A stretch of 32,000 nucleotides of DNA from Rubeoparvulum massiliense (GTDB lineage: Bacteria; Bacillota; Bacilli; Rubeoparvulales; Rubeoparvulaceae), in NCBI RefSeq assembly GCF_001049895.1, contig NZ_CVPE01000006.1, positions 1,154,836 through 1,186,835 of the forward strand. Reading direction: 5' to 3'. Below, in pieces: positions 15,092 through 32,000 of this stretch. A model generated the notes under the pieces. That model did not search any database, was not told the origin of the DNA, and saw nothing but the letters and a program-made list of their open reading frames with translations. Made by a program: the position numbers and the translations under genes. Within the stretch, counting starts at the first letter, position 1, and each line of letters starts with the position of its first letter.

Positions 15092-17314
15092 TCAATCTGA
15101 TTCATATCGTTCAAGTATACGATTCACAAACTCAATGGCCTGATTAAACTCCGCCAGACGAAATGAGTTCTCTGCTTCCTTTAGTAAAGCCTCTGCTTCT
15201 GGATCATTACGATAACGATATGCGTACTGAATAACATTCTCTGCTTCCTCACACGCTGTGATTGTCTCAATACTTTTTTCTTCAACGAGATATACCTGCT
15301 TCTCCAATTCATCGAGCTGTTGTTGAACAGCCAGCACATCGAATGGTTCTTCTATGAGCTTTTCGTCCGCTTCATCGAGCATCAACCCTGCGATCTCTAA
15401 AGCACTCACAAGATCACCAGGAAGTGCTGGTAGGTTTGTACGCCGCAATTGATTTTCAAGCTTGATTAAACGGCGATACAACTGCTCCATTCTATCTAAG
15501 GATTCATCTTCACTTTGTTGGTAGTAATGGAGCTTGGCAACCCATTCTTCACATAGTTCCACCTGTTTTTGAAGTTCCTCTTCGATCGTTAGCAGCTCCT
15601 GGTAAAGGGAGTTATAGATCGGTGCCTTCCCCTTCATCTTCCCTTCGATCTGCACGATCTTCTCCTCCATCTCTTCTTGAATCTGAGGGAGATTCGCCAT
15701 CGCTTGGCTGGCAACCGCTTCATCATCTTGGAGACGGTAATGCTGCTTCACATCGAACAGGAGGTGCTCCACTTCCGTTTGCTTCTCTTGTAAAGTATGG
15801 ATAGATGAATGAATTCGTTGGAGGGCCTGACCCGTTCTTTCTTTGGCACTGACCTCCTCCTCCAGATGTTGAAACATCTTATCTAGCTGTTGCTTCAACT
15901 CTTGAACTTGGGGGATCATGTCCCGAATATTGCCTTCGTGAAATTGTGTCAGCATCAGTGCCCAATTTTTACGAACTTGTTCGATCTCTTCATAGAACCC
16001 TACTTCTCGTAACGCAAAACCATGCACTTCCATTTCATTGGCGAACTGCGTCAATTGATCCAGATCATTCGGGATGGTTACCTCCATCTCTTCAGAAATA
16101 TGTGGAATCAACGAGGTGAACGACTTTAGCTTTTCCACGATGGATTCGATTTCGTCAAGAATTGGGGTCGCTTCAGCCATCCTTTCTTCTTTCGCCAGCG
16201 TCTGTAGTTCCTCGCGTAGCTCATGCAGCTGTTTCCATTCTTCTTGAATGGAATCCATGACGAGCTTACCGTCATTCACATATACCAGTAATTCCTGTTG
16301 AATCTGTACTACAATCCGCTCTACTTCAATGGCACGATCCTGAACATTCTCCGTTTGATCAATCCAATCCTGCCAGTCCTCCACCATTTGTATGGCCTGC
16401 TGCTCAACTTGATCCATGAGCTGATCAGCATCCATCATCATCTGTTTGGCTCGAATAAAATGGAGATGACTGATCTCCTCTTCAATCTCAAATAGATTCA
16501 TCTCAAAATTAGGTAGATGCTCCTCAGCCATCTTCTTCCATGACTGTTTAATCTCTTGGATCCGCCTTTGTTGTTCAATGGATAATCCTGCTATCCCTGG
16601 AATGCCTGTATAGTTGGTTAATCTCTCCTCCAAATCTAGTTTGATCGTTGAAAGATCCTCCACCATTCTCAACATGCGGTGACGCATCCAATAAATATAT
16701 GCAAGGGCTAGGGCTGCCAAAATCGTCAGACCTAAGATTAATTTAAGCCAAAAGGGCATCCCTAAGACATTAGCATCCTCATTCTGTTCTGCTTTCTTAT
16801 CGACGATGGAAGACTCCAGCGTAGCCTGACGATGGCGTGCTGTGGTAATCTCACCATCGATCGAGTCAATAAAGGTACTAATACCTTCCAAATGCATATT
16901 ATGTTCTGCATTCGGTACAATTAACGTATTGATTTTTTGAGTGATCAGTTTTCCATCGATCCCCAACTCAATCAATGCTTTACCTGGCTTTGCCACGATC
17001 TCCCCTGTTTCCATGGCCATTACTAGTAATAGTCCGTCATCAGGGATCTTCAGTTCATCAAATAATTGATTGGTATATTCTTGTGTAGTCATGGAATCCG
17101 CCTTCGATAGAATCACAACTCGGAAGGCTGCAGCCTTACTTTGAATATTCTGAGTTAATGACTCAATCTGCTGACGGATAAAGTAGTTCTCTTCATCGAT
17201 GACAAGAGCATCTTTATCCTTTGGAAAACCAACAGCTCCTACCGTCAAGGTAAAGACCAGAGAGTATATGAGTATGAGAATCCATGTTCGTTTGATCGTT
17301 GCCGCTTCTGACAT
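15092..17314 (-). CDS. ezrA: EzrA-family septation-ring regulator with N-terminal signal/TM + TPM-like extracytoplasmic extension
   Basis: From the second TM helix (FWLKLILGLTILAALALAYIYW) onward the protein is long coiled coil. It is collinear with B. subtilis EzrA as I remember it: TNLPALPGDL vs SNIPGIPSHI, and IQYAYRYRNDPEAEALLKEAENSFRLAEF vs IQFGNRYRSQNHILSEQLKEAERRFYAFDY. I prefer the ATG at 17312-17314 (MSEAATIKR), preceded by AAAGGAGA, over the tracked start at 17356. Confidence 0.8.
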   Translation of the reverse strand: MSEAATIKRTWILILIYSLVFTLTVGAVGFPKDKDALVIDEENYFIRQQIESLTQNIQSKAAAFRVVILSKADSMTTQEYTNQLFDELKIPDDGLLLVMAMETGEIVAKPGKALIELGIDGKLITQKINTLIVPNAEHNMHLEGISTFIDSIDGEITTARHRQATLESSIVDKKAEQNEDANVLGMPFWLKLILGLTILAALALAYIYWMRHRMLRMVEDLSTIKLDLEERLTNYTGIPGIAGLSIEQQRRIQEIKQSWKKMAEEHLPNFEMNLFEIEEEISHLHFIRAKQMMMDADQLMDQVEQQAIQMVEDWQDWIDQTENVQDRAIEVERIVVQIQQELLVYVNDGKLVMDSIQEEWKQLHELREELQTLAKEERMAEATPILDEIESIVEKLKSFTSLIPHISEEMEVTIPNDLDQLTQFANEMEVHGFALREVGFYEEIEQVRKNWALMLTQFHEGNIRDMIPQVQELKQQLDKMFQHLEEEVSAKERTGQALQRIHSSIHTLQEKQTEVEHLLFDVKQHYRLQDDEAVASQAMANLPQIQEEMEEKIVQIEGKMKGKAPIYNSLYQELLTIEEELQKQVELCEEWVAKLHYYQQSEDESLDRMEQLYRRLIKLENQLRRTNLPALPGDLVSALEIAGLMLDEADEKLIEEPFDVLAVQQQLDELEKQVYLVEEKSIETITACEEAENVIQYAYRYRNDPEAEALLKEAENSFRLAEFNQAIEFVNRILERYESD

Positions 17315-17489
17315 CTTGACGTCTCCTTTTTCTTTCATCATCCATATCACGCACAAGAAACACTATCTCTATTATTTCATCATCTCCCTGCTATCTTCCT
17401 GCCTTCTTCGTCAAAATCTATGTATTCTATCACTTTTTCGACATTTTTACCTGATCTGAATTAAAGCAGATCAGGTTCAATTCCTTATC

Positions 17490-24391: not shown

Positions 24392-24663
24392 TCGTTTTGA
24401 TTTGAGTGCCAAAGAAATTCCAGAGTCGTTGTCACACAGGTCTAATTGTAAATAAAGGCCAAATTGATGGAACTACCTTTAATTGGGTATTTACTTCTTT
24501 GGCTCTATACGAGAAAAATATTGAAATTGAAATTTCAAATATTATTTATGCAACACTAGTGATAAAAATTAGTGCCTTGATGAAGGGATCCACCTTAGAA
24601 TGTTTCCAAGAAAGAAACATTCCTATTAAAGGAAAAATTTTAGACTGTAAGTAGAATATTTTT

Positions 24664-25659
24664 TTACACGTAATAAATTATATTAGGGCTACTTGTACTT
24701 TTATGTGGTCCTAAACATAATTCATACTGATATCCATTGCGAATTTTAATTGTCGACTTTACTGCTATTGTACAAGTTTTATTCAATGGAATCCTTTTAA
24801 GATTGAAATTTCCAATCCTTATTCCAGTTATGTAACAATAACCACTATTTTTTGCGTTTTTTATCACTAGTTGTTTTGTAGTTGGATCGATTGTCTGGTC
24901 AATGACATTAATCACAATTATTGCCTCTTGATTCTTAGAAGCATTACAAGATCTCAAAACGTCTGTAACAGTGATGACAGAGCTTGGGTTAGTGTCCTCA
25001 ATGTACTTTCTGAAAATCTCGGTCTCAATATATTTTTCAATTAAGTTAATCATACATTTAAACAAATGAATTAGTAGTGTCATCTGTTTTGAATTTAACT
25101 GTTCACCTATTTCCATTTTATACGTATGCGAAATCGTATTTCTTAAATCCACAACAAGTTGTAAGTAACCAATTGCTGATTCTGATAGTTTGGTTGAGAT
25201 ATTTGTATGAACTGGAATGAGACCAGAACTTTTCAATAAGTTAATTATATTCTTAATATCTACTGATTTATCTATCAATGAAGTGAGAGTGTTAATATCG
25301 AGTCCTATAATTTTGATTAATTCTGCAAACTCATTCCAATTAAGATTATTCGACTGACATAAAATTTCTTTTTTTACTTTAGTATCTTTAATATCTTTCA
25401 TAAACTCCCTGGATAGGTAAGATTTACCAAAACTTTTCTTTAAGTATCTTTTTATAAATTCCTCTGTATGCAAAATATACTCGTAGTCAAAGTATGTATC
25501 ATAAATCTCATCCTTGGCATACGTTTCCCAAATAGTATAAAGTGATAAAATGAAATTTCTAGTTACTATTTTTTCTAATCTTTTTGATGGGTACTTTTTC
25601 TTAAGTTCTATTGTTCTTAATAATTCATCCAATGTCTCAAAAGCTACATTCTTGCTCAT
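24664..25659 (-). CDS. HEPN-domain protein (RiboL-PSP / MAE_18760-like, R-x4-H) with an unassigned ~105-aa C-terminal domain
   Basis: 331 aa. An all-helical N-terminal region of ~215 aa contains VVDLRNTISHTY, i.e. the HEPN RNase motif R173-x4-H178 (nt 25126-25143). The start ATG overlaps the stop of the upstream DUF262 gene (ATGA). Strongly AT-rich. Confidence 0.7.
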   Translation of the reverse strand: MSKNVAFETLDELLRTIELKKKYPSKRLEKIVTRNFILSLYTIWETYAKDEIYDTYFDYEYILHTEEFIKRYLKKSFGKSYLSREFMKDIKDTKVKKEILCQSNNLNWNEFAELIKIIGLDINTLTSLIDKSVDIKNIINLLKSSGLIPVHTNISTKLSESAIGYLQLVVDLRNTISHTYKMEIGEQLNSKQMTLLIHLFKCMINLIEKYIETEIFRKYIEDTNPSSVITVTDVLRSCNASKNQEAIIVINVIDQTIDPTTKQLVIKNAKNSGYCYITGIRIGNFNLKRIPLNKTCTIAVKSTIKIRNGYQYELCLGPHKSTSSPNIIYYV

Positions 25660-26792
25660 TTAGATAATTCCTCAGATAGAAAGTTATAGAAAATGTCTAT
25701 CCTAGCTTTTACATTAACCAAAGCTGTATATTTTCCATTAAATTGGTCCTTGTTTTTTTTAATTAGACTATTTTTATTTGTTTGATTTACAGTACCCCTT
25801 CGACGAAGCACCTCTAAATCATAACCTTCATCTAATAATTTCGACACTGAAAGCATTACAGTGTCATATATCATTTTTTCAAACTTACCTTTATTACTCT
25901 TCATGAATGCTTTGTCTCCATAAATAGAATGTACATTTTCAATAACATTCATAAAATATTTTTTTGCATCTTCAACTTGTTCTTCATTAAATTTTTGTGC
26001 AGCAATTTGATAGTTGTCGAGTGTTACTTTAATTCCTCTTTTGTAATCACATTTTATGGCAGATTTAAACGCAAAAAACCTAAGTATCATTTCTCTATCT
26101 TCCATGCGGATGAGTTCATCATCAGTATTTTTAATCATCAATTTAAATATCTTATTATCCGCTAATTCATTTACCATATTATTGAAATTAGAGGGGTGTA
26201 ATGCGTTTCTAATTTCATGTGGAGATAGTTCCATTCCCCCGGTATTTAGCCTTTCAAACACAAATTGTTTTAATTCTAACTCTCTTTCCTTACCCTTGCT
26301 CGATTCTTTCAAAATTATAATTGCAGACAAATAGCGTCTGTGGATTAGATTTCTTAACTCCTCAGGTAGGTCACTAAATTTACAACCATTTATTTCACTC
26401 CACAGTTCCAATCCCTCTAGCTTAAATTCATTCTTAAAAAAACTGATTATGGTTGAGATTCTTTGTAAACCATCCATTACTTCATATTTATTATAATCTG
26501 TCTCATAAAGAAAAACCGGAGGTATGGGAACATTGACCAAGCAACTCTCTATTAATTTTGATTTTCTTTTAATATCCCATACCCTTTTTCTTTGATATTC
26601 TGGATTTAAATTGTAATTAACAAAAATAAGTGGTAAGTTTTCTAAAGGATATCTCGCTTGATCAATAAGAAGGTTATACTCGCCATTCAGTGCTTTATTG
26701 ACTAAATACTCGCGGTTATAAGATGAATTTTTTGCTACTTCTTTTATATTGAAAACATTGAAAATTTTTTCCAATACTACTCCACCTTTCAT
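25656..26792 (-). CDS. DUF262 (ParB/GmrSD-N-like NTPase) domain protein lacking a DUF1524 nuclease domain
   Basis: YQRKRVW (nt 26577-26597), IPPVFLYE, DGLQR (nt 26460-26474, a variant of DGQQR) and ERLNTGGMELSPHEIRNA are the DUF262 hallmarks. The C-terminal ~180 aa are helical with no H-N-H / His-Me finger motif. An alternative TTG start at 26774, preceded by AAAGGTGGAG, is possible. Confidence 0.8.
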   Translation of the reverse strand: MKGGVVLEKIFNVFNIKEVAKNSSYNREYLVNKALNGEYNLLIDQARYPLENLPLIFVNYNLNPEYQRKRVWDIKRKSKLIESCLVNVPIPPVFLYETDYNKYEVMDGLQRISTIISFFKNEFKLEGLELWSEINGCKFSDLPEELRNLIHRRYLSAIIILKESSKGKERELELKQFVFERLNTGGMELSPHEIRNALHPSNFNNMVNELADNKIFKLMIKNTDDELIRMEDREMILRFFAFKSAIKCDYKRGIKVTLDNYQIAAQKFNEEQVEDAKKYFMNVIENVHSIYGDKAFMKSNKGKFEKMIYDTVMLSVSKLLDEGYDLEVLRRRGTVNQTNKNSLIKKNKDQFNGKYTALVNVKARIDIFYNFLSEELSK

Positions 26793-27084
26793 TAGAACTC
26801 TTTAAATAAAATATAGCATATTATTGTTTTTTTTGTTCCTATTTTGAGAATTCCTTCTTCAACTATTCTGACCCTTTAGTTTAAGTACATTTTTTTACAA
26901 ATCTTCGTTTGTTTTACCGTATAAAAAACAACCCTCTATGAATTTCAAAACTACTAGTAATTATCACCTGTTGATTCCCATGAAAGTTGTCTTTATTTTG
27001 ACGATGAATTCTTTTTCTTTATTAAAGTAAGACGTGTAGTAGTACAAAAATTAGTACAAAACAGTTTTATCCATATTCATTTGT

Positions 27085-28471
27085 GGTAGTGTCAATAAGT
27101 TTGTGTAATTTGTAGGGTACCTATCGCGTTCAATTCTATCTTGATAAATGATTCTATTGGTTCATATTATAAGGATCAATAGAATGCTCAGTTAGCACTT
27201 TTTCGCTATAACGTTGCTTGAACATCTCTTGTAGCTCCGAATAAGCAGCATCAAAACCACGAAGTTTCCTTTCTGACCACCGTTGATTGTAGTCAACAGA
27301 CTCAAGATAGACAATCTTTTCGGCTGCCTTCTCGGTAGGTAGACTGTTCATGGGCTTCGTGCGTTTTTTGATCTCTTTCATGGTACGTTCGATGATATTC
27401 GTGGTATAGATCAAGGGACGTATGGATGCAGGATAATCTAAGAATGTGAGCAACACGGATAAATCTTGTTCCCATGAACGAACAACTTTCGGGTATTTCT
27501 TCTCCCACGCTGCTTTAAACAATGCAAATTGTTCATGAGCTTCTTCCAGACTATGAGCTTGGTAGATGGGCTTTAAATCTTCTGCAACCGAAGGTTGATC
27601 CTTTTTCCGTATAAGGTTTAAGGCATTTCGAACTTTATGAACGACACAGCGTTGAACATCGGCTTGAGGAAAGACTTCTTTCATCGCTTCTTCAAGTCCT
27701 GGAAGTCCATCGAATACCCCCAGTAACACTTCCTGAACACCACGGCTGCAGAGATCCATTAAAATCTCTTTCCATCGTAGCGCACTTTCTTGACCGCCCA
27801 CATCAAACCCGAGTATCTCACGATACCCTTTCTCGGTAACACCAATGACGAGGTAGACCACTTCATTGGCAACATCTTCGCGGCGAAGCTTTAGATAGGT
27901 TCCATCTAAATAGAGAATGGAGTAACGTTGCTTCAAAGGACGCTGAAGCCACATCTCCATATCTTCAACAACCACATCTGTAATGTGACTGATCGTGGTG
28001 GCTGAATAAGATTGTCCTAAGATTCGCTCAATAAAATGACCAATTTCTCGTGTACTCATACCTTTCTGATACATGGTGATGATCGTATCGTTTCTTCGAG
28101 CCATTGTTCACGACGTTGATAGGGACTAAATATCCTGGTCTGAAAGGTGTTGTCGCGGTCACGTGGAACTTGTAAATCTTCGATACGCCCATATTTGGTA
28201 TCCAGTTGGCGTGTATACGAACCATTTTTATAATTCTTAAGTTCAGGATGTTCGTAAGTGAAGAAGCCATTCATTTCTTCCTTCATGATGGTTTCTAGTT
28301 TCTCTTTTACGAAGTTTCGAACCATCATTTCCAATTGCTTTTCAAAGGGGTTTTGCTCTATACTTGTAGACATGGTAGGGTATCTCCTCTTCGTTGATTT
28401 TGCGGTTAACTTGAGGGTACCCTATCTCTTTTTTGCTTTCAAGCACTTTACACAAACTATTGTACGTCATC
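27085..28471 (-). mobile_element. IS256-family insertion sequence (1387 bp) with 8-bp target-site duplication
   Basis: Direct repeats tcatttgt at 27077-27084 and 28472-28479. Imperfect terminal inverted repeats: ggtagtgtcaataagtttgtgtaatttg (left) vs the reverse complement gatgacgtacaatagtttgtgtaaagtg (right). The element encloses a Mutator/IS256-type transposase. The 8-bp TSD agrees with the family. Confidence 0.8.
27154..28373 (-). pseudogene. IS256-family (Mutator-type) transposase, frameshifted
   Basis: The N-terminal 105-aa ORF (28056-28373) and the 316-aa ORF (27154-28104) together cover a full IS256 transposase (...FSPYQRREQWLEE | IITMYQKGMSTREI...YLDGTY...CVVHKVRN...). The frames are offset at a tandem atcgtatcgt (28082-28091). 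Confidence 0.8.
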
Positions 28472-29193: not shown

Positions 29194-29715
29194 TTGATCG
29201 ATATGACAGAAAAAAATGGAGTACGATATTCGCAAGAACAAAAAGAGTCCATTATCAAACGCATGATGCCCCCCAATCATGAATCTGTATCGAAAATTTC
29301 AAAAGAAGAAGGCATCTCAGATGCGACGTTGTACAAGTGGCGCAGAGAAGCTCGCAAGGCTGGTATGGCAACACCTGGTAATGGACAAACAAGCGAGAAA
29401 TGGAGTAGCTAAGATAAGTTTTTAATTGTGATAGAAACCTTCGCGATGAATGAATTGGAGCTTGCCGAGTATTGTCGCAAAAAGGGTCTGTATCGTGAAC
29501 AGATTGAAGCATGGAAAAATGTATGCCTTCAGGCAAATGGCCATGCATTCGATCAAGCGAAGCAGTTGAATGGTGCATTGAAGGAAGAACAGAAGCGTGC
29601 TAAGCAATTAGAAAAAGAGCTACAAAAGAAAGAAAAGGCACTAGCCGAAGCTGCGGCGTTATTACTTTTGCGAAAAAAGGCCCAAGCGATTTGGGGGGGC
29701 GACGAGGAAGAATGA
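29194..29715 (+). pseudogene. IS3-family OrfA (HTH + leucine zipper) with an in-frame TAA
   Basis: The tracked ORFs 29194-29412 and 29428-29715 are in the same frame and read ...GQTSEKWSS*DKFLIVIETFAMNELELAEYCRKKGLY.... The TAA at 29410-29412 sits where homologues would continue (an Glu GAA codon is plausible). Confidence 0.7.
29673..29679 (+). promoter_or_regulatory. Programmed -1 ribosomal frameshift heptamer A_AAA_AAG (orfA to orfB)
   Basis: AAAAAAG lies in the orfA zero frame as A AAA AAG. The orfB frame (29691 onward) is exactly -1 relative to orfA. This is the canonical IS3-family arrangement. Confidence 0.75.
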
Positions 29716-30770
29716 TTAGCCCGTCAAATTTCGCATTAGCAGTCGAACTTATCCAAGAAGCCCATCAAAATGATGCGCGGCTAGCGAAGGCTTGCGAGGA
29801 ACTTCATATCAGCGTTCGTACCTATGAACGTTGGGTGGCAGAGGGTGGTGTGAAGGTTGATCAGCGCCCTCTTACGAAAAGACCGGTACCGAAGAATAAG
29901 TTGTCTGAGAAAGAAAAAGAAGAAATATTAATGGTTGTCAAACAGGAAGAATACGCCGATTTACTACCGACACAGATCGTACCAAGGCTTGCGGATAAAG
30001 GAACTTATATTGCGTCAGAATCCACCTTTTATCGTGTGTTACGTGAAGAAAAAATGCAACACCATCGTGGTCGTAGTCAAAAGCCTGAGAGAAGAATCCC
30101 TGAGAGTCATCTAGCAACGTCGCCAAACCAAGTGTGGACATGGGATATTACGTGGCTTGGTGGGCCTGTAAAAGGTTTGTATTATCGCCTCTATTTAATT
30201 CTCGATTTATTTAGTAGAAAAGCAGTGGGTTGGGAAGTTTGGGAAACAGAAGAGGCAAAACACGCCGAAACGCTCGTGAAAAAAGCAGTCATCCGTGAAA
30301 AAATCCAAGGGGCACCTCTCGTGTTGCATTCAGATAATGGCAGCCCGATGAAAGCCGAGACATTCTTAAGTTTACTAGAGAAATTGGGCATTCAAAGTTC
30401 CTTTTCAAGACCGCGTGTGAGTAACGATAATCCTTATTCAGAAGCGATGTTTCGAACACTTAAATATCGACCTGATTTCCCACACAAAGGTTTTGCGTCA
30501 CTCGAAGAAGCAAGGAAATGGGCACAGCAATTCGTCCATTGGTACAACGAAATTCACCTGCATCGTGGGCTAAATTTTGTGACGCCTGTGCAGTGTCATA
30601 TTGGAGAACATGTAGCCCTATTGGAAAAGCGAAAAAACGTATATGAAGCAGCGAAGGCAAAGCATCCAGAGCGTTGGGCTCGGAGCACAAGAAATTGGAC
30701 ACCTCATGAACGAGTAGCACTTAATCCCATGCGAGATGAAGAGCAAACCAAAGCACTGAGGAAATCATAA
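29691..30770 (+). CDS. IS3-family OrfB (DDE/rve integrase-core transposase domain)
   Basis: WTWDITWL...LYLILDLFSRKAVGWEV (first D), VLHSDNGSPMKA (second D), SNDNPYSEAMFRTLKY (E). It would normally be expressed as an OrfAB fusion through the -1 frameshift. Confidence 0.85.
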   Translation: MGGRRGRMISPSNFALAVELIQEAHQNDARLAKACEELHISVRTYERWVAEGGVKVDQRPLTKRPVPKNKLSEKEKEEILMVVKQEEYADLLPTQIVPRLADKGTYIASESTFYRVLREEKMQHHRGRSQKPERRIPESHLATSPNQVWTWDITWLGGPVKGLYYRLYLILDLFSRKAVGWEVWETEEAKHAETLVKKAVIREKIQGAPLVLHSDNGSPMKAETFLSLLEKLGIQSSFSRPRVSNDNPYSEAMFRTLKYRPDFPHKGFASLEEARKWAQQFVHWYNEIHLHRGLNFVTPVQCHIGEHVALLEKRKNVYEAAKAKHPERWARSTRNWTPHERVALNPMRDEEQTKALRKS

Positions 30771-30786
30771 TATTCCCCATTCTCCT

Positions 30787-30832
30787 GGTGATTTGAATCG
30801 AAAACCCGTTCTTCCTTTCGATTCAAATCACC
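30787..30832. repeat. Perfect 17-bp inverted repeat (hairpin) downstream of IS3 orfB
   Basis: ggtgatttgaatcgaaa (30787-30803) and tttcgattcaaatcacc (30816-30832) are separated by 12 nt. No T-run follows on either strand. Confidence 0.7.
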
Positions 30833-30953
30833 CGGTCAGCAAGCGTAGCGCGGTAGCCTTGACTGAATTTGGGATTTGATGACGATCTATTAAAATACTA
30901 AACTAGCTAAATGCGACAACTATATTGACAAACACTGCTTGGGGGGATGAGTA

Positions 30954-32000
30954 ATGGCAGATTTTATATTAGAAGAACAAATAGAAAATGTAATAAATAA
31001 AACAACAAAAGAATATTTAAAGGAAGTTCTTTCAAGCTATTACAATGGAAATTATAGAGCAGTAGTTGTGGTACTTTATACTATTGTTATTTATGATTTA
31101 TTAAAAAAAATTGTTATTCTAAAAGAAATATATAATGACAAAGGTGCTGAGAAAATAATTGGAGAAATTAAGAAACAACAAAGCAATAATCCAAAAAGTC
31201 CAGAATGGGAAGGCAGTTTGATTGAAGATGTGTACAAAGAAACGAAATTAATATCGGCTGTTGAAAAAGATGAGCTTCTACACCTCAAAAATGAAAGAAA
31301 CTATGCAGCACATCCAATAATAAACATAGATGATGAGAATGAAAAATTAGTACTAAAACAGATTACAAAAGAGACCGCCAGTGATCTAATAAGAAAGGCG
31401 TTTGAAATTGTATTTCTGCGTGATGCAATTCTAGCTAAAAACATTGTTAATGATATTATTTCTGATTTAAATCTATATTATGAAAGAGTAAAGACAGAAG
31501 GATTAGAAAATTATTTAAATACAAAATATTTCCGAAGAATGATTCAAGAGAGAAAAGATAGTTTATTTAAATCGTTGTGGAAATTTGTTTTCATTCTTAG
31601 CGATGATGAATGCAATAAAAATAGAGAATCAAATTACTGGGGACTAGTATTTTTATATAATGAAAATAAAAACCATTACCAGAATTTAATCAAAAAAGAT
31701 AAGGATTACTATTTCAATAAATTGCAATTAGAAACTATAAAAAGCTGGTGTGGGAGCGGAGGAATTGACGTAAACTACGATACTATTATTATGTTTAAAA
31801 GCATAAGTCGAATTACTAATTTAATCAAATTCTTAGAATCTGCTCCAGAAATATATGCGGTACTAAATGACTATGCGAAAAATATATTAAAGCAATCAAT
31901 TAATCATATGTACATCGAAGATGATGTAGTTGAAAAGTCTTTGTATCAGGTCAACAACCAAAATAGCGATTTATTTAAAGAACAGGTAAAATTGAAATCT
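30954..32000 (+). CDS. Abi-like HEPN-motif protein, at least 349 aa (3' end outside window)
   Basis: This ORF is absent from the supplied track because it has no stop inside the window. ATG at 30954 is preceded by GGGGGGA. I translated it by hand with no stop through 32000. Helical N-terminal domain YYNGNYRAVVVVLYTIVIYDLL...LLHLKNERNYAAHP with R115-x4-H120 (nt 31296-31313). Very AT-rich. Confidence 0.7.
   Translation, partial: MADFILEEQIENVINKTTKEYLKEVLSSYYNGNYRAVVVVLYTIVIYDLLKKIVILKEIYNDKGAEKIIGEIKKQQSNNPKSPEWEGSLIEDVYKETKLISAVEKDELLHLKNERNYAAHPIINIDDENEKLVLKQITKETASDLIRKAFEIVFLRDAILAKNIVNDIISDLNLYYERVKTEGLENYLNTKYFRRMIQERKDSLFKSLWKFVFILSDDECNKNRESNYWGLVFLYNENKNHYQNLIKKDKDYYFNKLQLETIKSWCGSGGIDVNYDTIIMFKSISRITNLIKFLESAPEIYAVLNDYAKNILKQSINHMYIEDDVVEKSLYQVNNQNSDLFKEQVKLKS

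Follow-up and report, generated by a model that had tools for sequence, protein, structure and literature searches.

A DUF262 and HEPN gene pair of Rubeoparvulum massiliense as a probable long-HEPN form of the PD-T4-2 class of anti-phage modules

A contig of Rubeoparvulum massiliense (NZ_CVPE01000006.1; the 32,000 nucleotides from position 1,154,836 to 1,186,835 are called the window here) carries two coupled genes, one coding for a DUF262 protein (ORF-A) and one for a HEPN protein (ORF-B), which raise the question of whether they form a defence module of a new kind or a variant of a known one. A sequence-only reading of this DNA, made without database searches, had stated that no characterised system of DUF262 plus a stand-alone HEPN protein was known. 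This did not hold: PD-T4-2 of E. coli ECOR65, described as 'DUF262, HEPN', has been validated as a system acting against phage T4 (Vassallo et al. 2022, PMC9519451), and the notion of DUF262 plus HEPN as an undescribed architecture is not supported. In our analysis the two genes probably form an anti-phage module with the architecture of the PD-T4-2 class, here in a Gram-positive form with a long HEPN protein, acquired horizontally and lying in a small island of defence genes and insertion sequences (IS). Hence, the pairing itself is known already, with PD-T4-2 as its validated member, while the long form of the HEPN protein with a beta-barrel is new.

The two open reading frames (ORFs) had been proposed to lie on the minus strand and to overlap in ATGA, and both the ORFs and the overlap were confirmed in the sequence (Table 1). 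The maximal ORF-A has 378 aa, but its true start is probably the TTG at 26774, which gives 372 aa, because AAAGGTGGAG precedes this codon and because it is also the start of the homologues and of NCBI protein P0020 ('MEKIF...'). Both protein sequences are 100% identical to proteins of R. massiliense. The low G+C content noted for the pair was also borne out, with 27-32% over 24501-27000 versus about 40-47% in most of the window and a background of about 43%. Two long ORFs in DNA of 28% G+C, both with homologues, are far beyond chance. A candidate extended -10 element, TGcTATATT, had been placed one base off and on the plus strand; it is actually found at 26810-26818 of the minus strand. It was not called by a promoter scan of the region, in which promoter-like sites around the pair were no commoner than in shuffled sequence, and therefore this promoter is a candidate only. 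RNA scans of the window gave neither an Rfam match nor a tRNA, and a repeat scan revealed no informative repeats around the island.

Table 1. Positions of the gene pair, its domains and motifs, and the neighbouring elements in the window
Feature	Position	Strand	Remarks
ORF-A, DUF262/ParB-like NTPase with C-terminal ParBDB-like helical half	25656-26792	minus	maximal ORF, 378 aa
Shine-Dalgarno and probable TTG start of ORF-A	26772-26789	minus	read from sequence; agrees with annotated N-termini
DUF262 (GmrSD_N) domain of ORF-A	26196-26609	minus	residues 62-199, Pfam
YQRKRVW in ORF-A	26577-26597	minus	QRxxxW part 26577-26594
DGLQR in ORF-A	26460-26474	minus	DGxQR motif
FERLN in ORF-A	26244-26258	minus	FxRxN motif
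C-terminal half of ORF-A	25671-26195	minus	residues 200-374; aligns to C-terminal part of NsnA and PD-T4-2_A models
ATGA overlap, ORF-A stop and ORF-B start	25656-25659	minus	translational coupling
ORF-B, long-form HEPN protein	24664-25659	minus	331 aa
HEPN domain of RiboL-PSP type in ORF-B	25024-25608	minus	residues 18-212, all-helical
RNTISH, catalytic Rx4H motif of ORF-B	25126-25143	minus	R173, N174, H178
C-terminal beta-barrel of ORF-B	24712-24975	minus	residues 229-316, AlphaFold2 pLDDT about 80
IS256-family (Transposase_mut) transposase	27154-28373	minus	two overlapping ORFs, 105 and 316 aa; directly upstream of the pair
IS3-family element	29194-30835	plus	HTH_Tnp_1 ORF, 95-aa ORF, rve integrase ORF 29691-30770
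PD-T7-3-like gene	30954-32000, past window end	plus	G+C 27-28%, 4 kb from the pair

ORF-A had been described as a DUF262 protein lacking DUF1524, and Pfam agreed: GmrSD_N/DUF262 was matched at 1.5e-27, while neither DUF1524 nor any other family was found at E<=1. The positions that had been read for YQRKRVW, DGLQR and, in ORF-B, RNTISH are all correct against the sequence. When 26 ORF-A homologues from Bacillota, Fusobacteria and enterobacterial plasmids, including those of E. coli, were aligned, Q67, R68 and W72, D107, G108, Q110 and R111, and F179, R181 and N183 were invariant. No His-Me finger was detected in the C-terminal half by the Pfam scan. The PADLOC scan of ORF-A listed three models only, namely NsnA (7.6e-69, model positions 65-381 of 385), PD-T4-2_A (1.4e-39, positions 53-355 of 363) and REase_II (1.3e-9), and the ORF-A profile weakly matched the BrxU structure 7P9K (8e-4) in the DUF262 part only. 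Since the NsnA and PD-T4-2_A alignments are full length, ORF-A has a ParB-like nucleoside triphosphatase (NTPase) domain followed by a helical half of the kind that Li et al. 2025 (PMC12065111) term ParBDB and predict to bind DNA.

For ORF-B, the proposal of a stand-alone HEPN protein with an Rx4H motif in a helical domain was sustained. The protein matched Pfam HEPN_RiboL-PSP at 4e-5, with 24 bits that fall short of the gathering score of 28.4, and HEPN_MAE_28990 at 0.0034. The assignment becomes firmer with the whole family, in which 15 of 22 ORF-B relatives matched RiboL-PSP, the best of them at 4.9e-14. R173, N174 and H178 (RNxxxH) were invariant in three alignments that included relatives down to 23% identity. 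The AlphaFold2 model, with a mean predicted local distance difference test (pLDDT) score of 81.6, is all-helical over residues 1-222 (helices 3-222, pLDDT mostly above 80) and ends in a beta domain, which is not present in PD-T4-2B or in the short enterobacterial HEPN partners. An exhaustive profile search of 1.84 billion representatives recovered only 52 ORF-B relatives, nearly all of 320-380 aa and aligned over both domains, so that the long form amounts to a small and coherent group. A second word-indexed search with a broader ORF-B alignment was less informative, as it added no more than six proteins. No meaningful match was obtained in NCBIfam and none in PHROGs, the ORF-B family profile gave chance-level matches only against PDB sequences, tblastn of ORF-B against plasmids returned no match, and the viral contigs scanned with the ORF-B alignment contained no confirmed relative. 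Three cysteines in the barrel region of ORF-B (C238, C275 and C296) show no or almost no variation within the close clade and are not kept in the long forms of Enterococcus and Clostridium.

The domain content bears on the possibility that the pair is a split type IV restriction enzyme, in which ORF-A would read modified DNA like GmrS and ORF-B would be a DNA nuclease replacing DUF1524. In GmrSD, BrxU and SspE, DNA is sensed by DUF262 in an NTP-dependent manner. Like these enzymes, ORF-A has a DUF262 NTPase with DGxQR in its nucleotide pocket and, after it, a helical middle domain for DNA binding, the weak matches to BrxU and REase_II point in the same direction, and T4, the phage on which PD-T4-2 was selected, has glucosylated hydroxymethylcytosine in its DNA. 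However, the effector that GmrSD, BrxU and SspE carry in fused form is a DNase or nickase of the DUF1524 His-Me type, whereas ORF-B is encoded apart from the sensor and is a HEPN protein predicted to be an RNase. To our knowledge, the characterised HEPN domains are RNases or RNA-binding domains and not DNases. A DNase is unlikely because no His-Me, PD-(D/E)xK or HNH signature was found in either protein with Pfam and PADLOC, and we regard a split type IV enzyme as very unlikely. Membership of the pair in the GmrSD, BrxU and SspE group itself was ruled out, as neither protein has a DUF1524 match in Pfam.

To follow the pair across genomes, three sets of starting points were used, namely relatives of ORF-B, relatives of ORF-A at 46-87% identity and remote ORF-B representatives. 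In all 12 lineages examined, the window included, the DUF262 gene came first and the HEPN gene directly downstream. The other eleven were Mesobacillus (L001), Jeotgalicoccus (L002), Paenibacillus (L003), Exiguobacterium (L004), Enterococcus raffinosus (L005-7), Clostridium perfringens (L010/11), Lactococcus lactis (L015/16), Leptotrichia (L017/18), two metagenomic lineages (L008/9 and L020/21) and a 4.3-kb contig with a Rep3 replication gene, a small plasmid (L022). The two genes were separated by up to 6 nt or overlapped by up to 23 nt in 15 related loci, so that the co-occurrence and tight coupling expected of the homologues are indeed conserved. ORF-B was aligned by BLASTP to the HEPN partners of related loci at 2e-68, 1e-30 and 5e-18, and a scan of genome contigs with one peptide pattern yielded 2 loci. 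In Lactococcus lactis (L016, 6148-7287) and Leptotrichia hofstadii (L018, 6106-7141), the HEPN gene is broken into two ORFs and the DUF262 gene is intact, which suggests selection against the effector and fits a costly toxin. About 200 nt downstream of the DUF262 and long-HEPN pair in the second metagenomic lineage, there is a gene for an endoribonuclease L-PSP (YjgF/RidA; L020, 5303-5749; L021, 3064-3510), which echoes the fusion from which the RiboL-PSP-HEPN family takes its name.

Comparison with PD-T4-2, for which we relied on published Pfam families and PADLOC models, showed the same gene order, with a DUF262 gene (about 360-385 aa, without DUF1524) followed by a HEPN gene. In the HHpred results of PMC9519451, PD-T4-2A corresponds to PF03235 (99.7%) and PD-T4-2B to PF18735 RiboL-PSP (97.8%) and PF18737 MAE_28990 (96.9%), the latter two being also the top Pfam families of ORF-B; a 2023 review enters PD-T4-2 under DUF262 and PF18735. 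Furthermore, ORF-A spans the full PD-T4-2_A model, and both are mobile and defence-associated, with PD-T4-2-like pairs occurring in a P2-like prophage hotspot and on plasmids. The statement that surveys of HEPN domains had noted ParB/DUF262 neighbourhoods proved right, since Table 1 of Anantharaman et al. 2013 (PMC3710099) lists "RiboL-PSP-HEPN in operon with ParB", the same neighbourhood as here; this is a descriptive survey, and the table does not single out the long form with the barrel. There are also differences. ORF-B has 331 aa as against about 165 aa of PD-T4-2B (168 model positions; 1540 bp for the whole system, at 338334-339873 of QOYX01000002, where PD-T4-2A is RCO39066.1 and the B ORF is unannotated), it has the added C-terminal beta-barrel, it is not detected by the PD-T4-2_B model, and the host belongs to the Bacillota instead of the Proteobacteria. 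Architecture, gene order, Pfam families and the fit to the PD-T4-2_A model would place the pair in the PD-T4-2 class, and, as judged from the sequences, in a distinct long-HEPN form and not as a strict sequence-level member of PD-T4-2. A match to a named, characterised system thus exists at the level of architecture and fails at the level of the PADLOC PD-T4-2_B model.

Enterobacteria commonly carry the class. DUF262 genes related to ORF-A were found by tblastn on 819 plasmids, 526 of them from Escherichia and 555 of the 819 conjugative. In the three plasmids and the P2-like prophage that were examined, the DUF262 gene was followed by a gene for a 'HEPN domain-containing protein' of 180-261 aa, and all three plasmid-borne partners passed the Pfam gathering score for RiboL-PSP. 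One of these pairs resides on a plasmid of only 3.9 kb (L012). On the E. coli IncX1 plasmid p573-5 (L013, 2968-5482), the DUF262 and short HEPN pair comes directly after the replication initiation gene. The chromosome of E. coli 504239 (L019, 3916-5686) has a DUF262 gene (384 aa) and a HEPN gene (211 aa) in a P2-like prophage, between the CI repressor and the integrase. This locus came from a distant blastn of E. coli genomes and is a related P2-prophage pair and not PD-T4-2 itself; it obtained the best scores with the PD-T4-2 models among the pairs examined (A, 1.8e-55; B, 1.4e-8). The PADLOC PD-T4-2_B model missed two short HEPN partners, those of IncX1 and of Klebsiella, which leaves 2 of the 4 enterobacterial partners unmatched, and gave 4.4e-4 and 1.4e-8 for the two other partners, both from E. 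coli. The combination of DUF262 and HEPN is a widespread and mobile defence class: plasmids (IncX1 and small ones), a P2-like prophage hotspot and Gram-positive chromosomes all carry it.

The PADLOC results also bring up Menshen (NsnABC; Millman et al. 2022; Li et al. 2025, PMC12065111), whose sensor likewise consists of a ParB-DUF262 domain and a ParBDB-like half and likely has a role of the same kind. The pair might be a reduced Menshen system in which NsnA is kept as the sensor, the ATPase transducer NsnB has been lost and the NsnC effector has been swapped for a HEPN protein. NsnA is the top PADLOC match of ORF-A over its full length, and Li et al. describe heavy shuffling of NsnC effector domains. 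Nevertheless, neither the window nor any other of the 12 lineages has an NsnB-type ABC ATPase gene (AAA_15 plus DUF3696) beside the pair, and ORF-B, modelled as a helical HEPN domain with a beta-barrel, matched neither NsnB nor NsnC in PADLOC. It has no inPIN domain; NsnC carries such an inactive PIN domain at its N-terminus and a nuclease or toxin domain at its C-terminus. The term 'HEPN' never occurs in the Menshen survey, in which PD-T4-2 appears as a separate DUF262 system. Moreover, the NsnA model outscored PD-T4-2_A on every enterobacterial DUF262 and HEPN pair tested, those of E. coli among them, and is simply the broader model; therefore its rank on ORF-A is no argument for Menshen. 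We consider the derivation of the pair from Menshen very unlikely, and membership in Menshen as it stands was ruled out by the lack of NsnB and NsnC. Dazbog (DzbAB) was likewise ruled out, as neither ORF-A nor ORF-B matched DzbA or DzbB in PADLOC. The consequence for annotation is that the PADLOC v2 models would leave this locus uncalled: PD-T4-2_B is too narrow a model, and a Menshen call needs both NsnB and NsnC.

Next to its architecture, the surroundings of the pair speak for a function in defence. Defence genes were present within 8 kb of the pair in about half of the 12 lineages: a type II CBASS operon in Mesobacillus, a type I restriction-modification system in Paenibacillus, Dcm/Vsr, an AspBHI-like enzyme and an SNF2/PLD protein in Exiguobacterium, SRA-HNH and Schlafen-like (SLFN) helicases in metagenomic locus L008, and a STAND ATPase with recombinases in Enterococcus raffinosus L007. 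In the window itself, the order is rpsD, the pair, a split IS256-family transposase, an IS3-family element and a PD-T7-3-like gene. The first 349 aa of the latter matched PADLOC PD-T7-3 at 1.3e-78, and they carry a HEPN-like RNYAAH motif ('LKNERNYAAHP', about 31294-31311); Pfam gave no match for this gene. Together with the pair, it makes up a small defence island. The IS256-family transposase is frameshifted or decayed, and in Enterococcus raffinosus (L005, L007) Transposase_mut fragments are likewise present, some 1 kb downstream of the homologous pair; a 20-nt inverted repeat (30784-30835) follows the rve ORF of the IS3-family element. Further signs of mobility are the low G+C content, the adjoining IS256 and IS3 elements, the Rep3 small plasmid, the small and IncX1 plasmids of E. 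coli, the P2-like prophage hotspot, phrog_2598 and 74 phage records. A defence role of the pair, as had been anticipated, is well supported by this context.

Several observations have to be set against the assignment to the PD-T4-2 class. In 6 of the 12 lineages, no recognisable defence neighbour was seen. ORF-A scores higher on Menshen NsnA than on PD-T4-2_A, a ranking that is not discriminating. The profile searches, which had been recommended as a check, returned a clear DUF262 match for ORF-A and a sub-threshold HEPN match for ORF-B, for which PADLOC yielded nothing at E<=1, PD-T4-2_B included; the failure of this last model carries limited weight because it is narrow. The ORF-B profile did not reach the short HEPN partners at E<=0.001, and single short HEPN partners from E. 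coli gave no significant hhalign match to the ORF-B family (the MAFFT alignment of three short partners was poor and was left out as a profile). These three negative results confine the putative homology of ORF-B to PD-T4-2B, at the sequence level, to the common Pfam family, the partner and the synteny. Finally, in the literature searched, we found no mechanistic study of PD-T4-2 or of any member of its class.

By analogy with the DUF262 enzymes and the characterised HEPN RNases, we infer how a PD-T4-2-class module of this form could work. ORF-A, with its ParBDB-type half, would be the sensor and switch: it would bind NTP through DGxQR and respond to some feature of the invader's DNA. The ATGA coupling would keep the amount of ORF-B in a fixed ratio to that of ORF-A, and ORF-B would stay inactive until ORF-A signals. 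The HEPN RNase of ORF-B, with R173 and H178 probably forming a composite site in a dimer, would then cut RNA, which would halt translation and phage growth by abortive infection or growth arrest. The barrel would most likely place the RNase on its RNA substrate or dock ORF-B to ORF-A. The sequence-only reading had pictured an effector swap of GmrSD, with a DUF262 sensor driving an RNase in trans; the domains of this scheme were found, and control by the sensor is a reasonable supposition.

The same features could be explained by a toxin-antitoxin addiction module, in which ORF-B is a HEPN toxin and ORF-A a constitutive antitoxin, the two stabilising an island or plasmid instead of sensing phage. 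Tight coupling with the putative neutraliser as the upstream gene, the HEPN pseudogenes beside intact DUF262 genes, the very small plasmids of 3.9 and 4.3 kb with little else on them and the position next to a replication gene on IncX1 all agree with it, and HEPN toxins are well known in toxin-antitoxin systems. On the other hand, an NTPase of 372 aa that has a DNA-binding half and keeps three catalytic motifs invariant goes far beyond the needs of a passive antitoxin, and PD-T4-2 protects from phage, its deletion from native ECOR65 making this strain T4-sensitive (PMC9519451). Besides, the two roles are not exclusive, as many modules of this type double as abortive-infection systems; restraint of ORF-B by ORF-A until triggering is common to both schemes, and minimal plasmids would fit it. 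We therefore judge pure addiction to be unlikely and retain the anti-phage module. A HEPN-MNT toxin-antitoxin system was ruled out, the partner being DUF262 and no nucleotidyltransferase being matched in Pfam.

As to the barrel, when it was modelled alone and compared with the PDB by Foldseek, the top matches were almost all EF-Tu chains (TMq 0.59, rmsd 3.6 A over 92 columns, probability 1.0, best E 3e-3), with IF2/eIF5B also listed, and the full-length ORF-B model gave the same set. The Foldseek output leaves the aligned EF-Tu domain unspecified. Domain II of EF-Tu is the domain that grips the aminoacyl end of tRNA, and beta-barrel folds of this type are common; on the model, the likeness is one of fold and not homology. 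We speculated that the long form could be a distinct sub-system in which the EF-Tu-like barrel aims the RNase at aminoacyl-tRNA or at the factor-binding site of the ribosome, a proposal that we hold to be rather doubtful. If it were true, the Gram-positive pairs would stop translation by a route unlike that of the short PD-T4-2B proteins. The long and short forms offer a tractable comparison, with the same sensor and its invariant motifs on both sides and an effector with an added barrel on one.

Elsewhere in the window, and unrelated to the pair, a 754-aa protein (15092-17356, minus strand) has a TPM_phosphatase domain at its N-terminus joined to an EzrA septation-ring regulator domain, which may be an unusual fusion.

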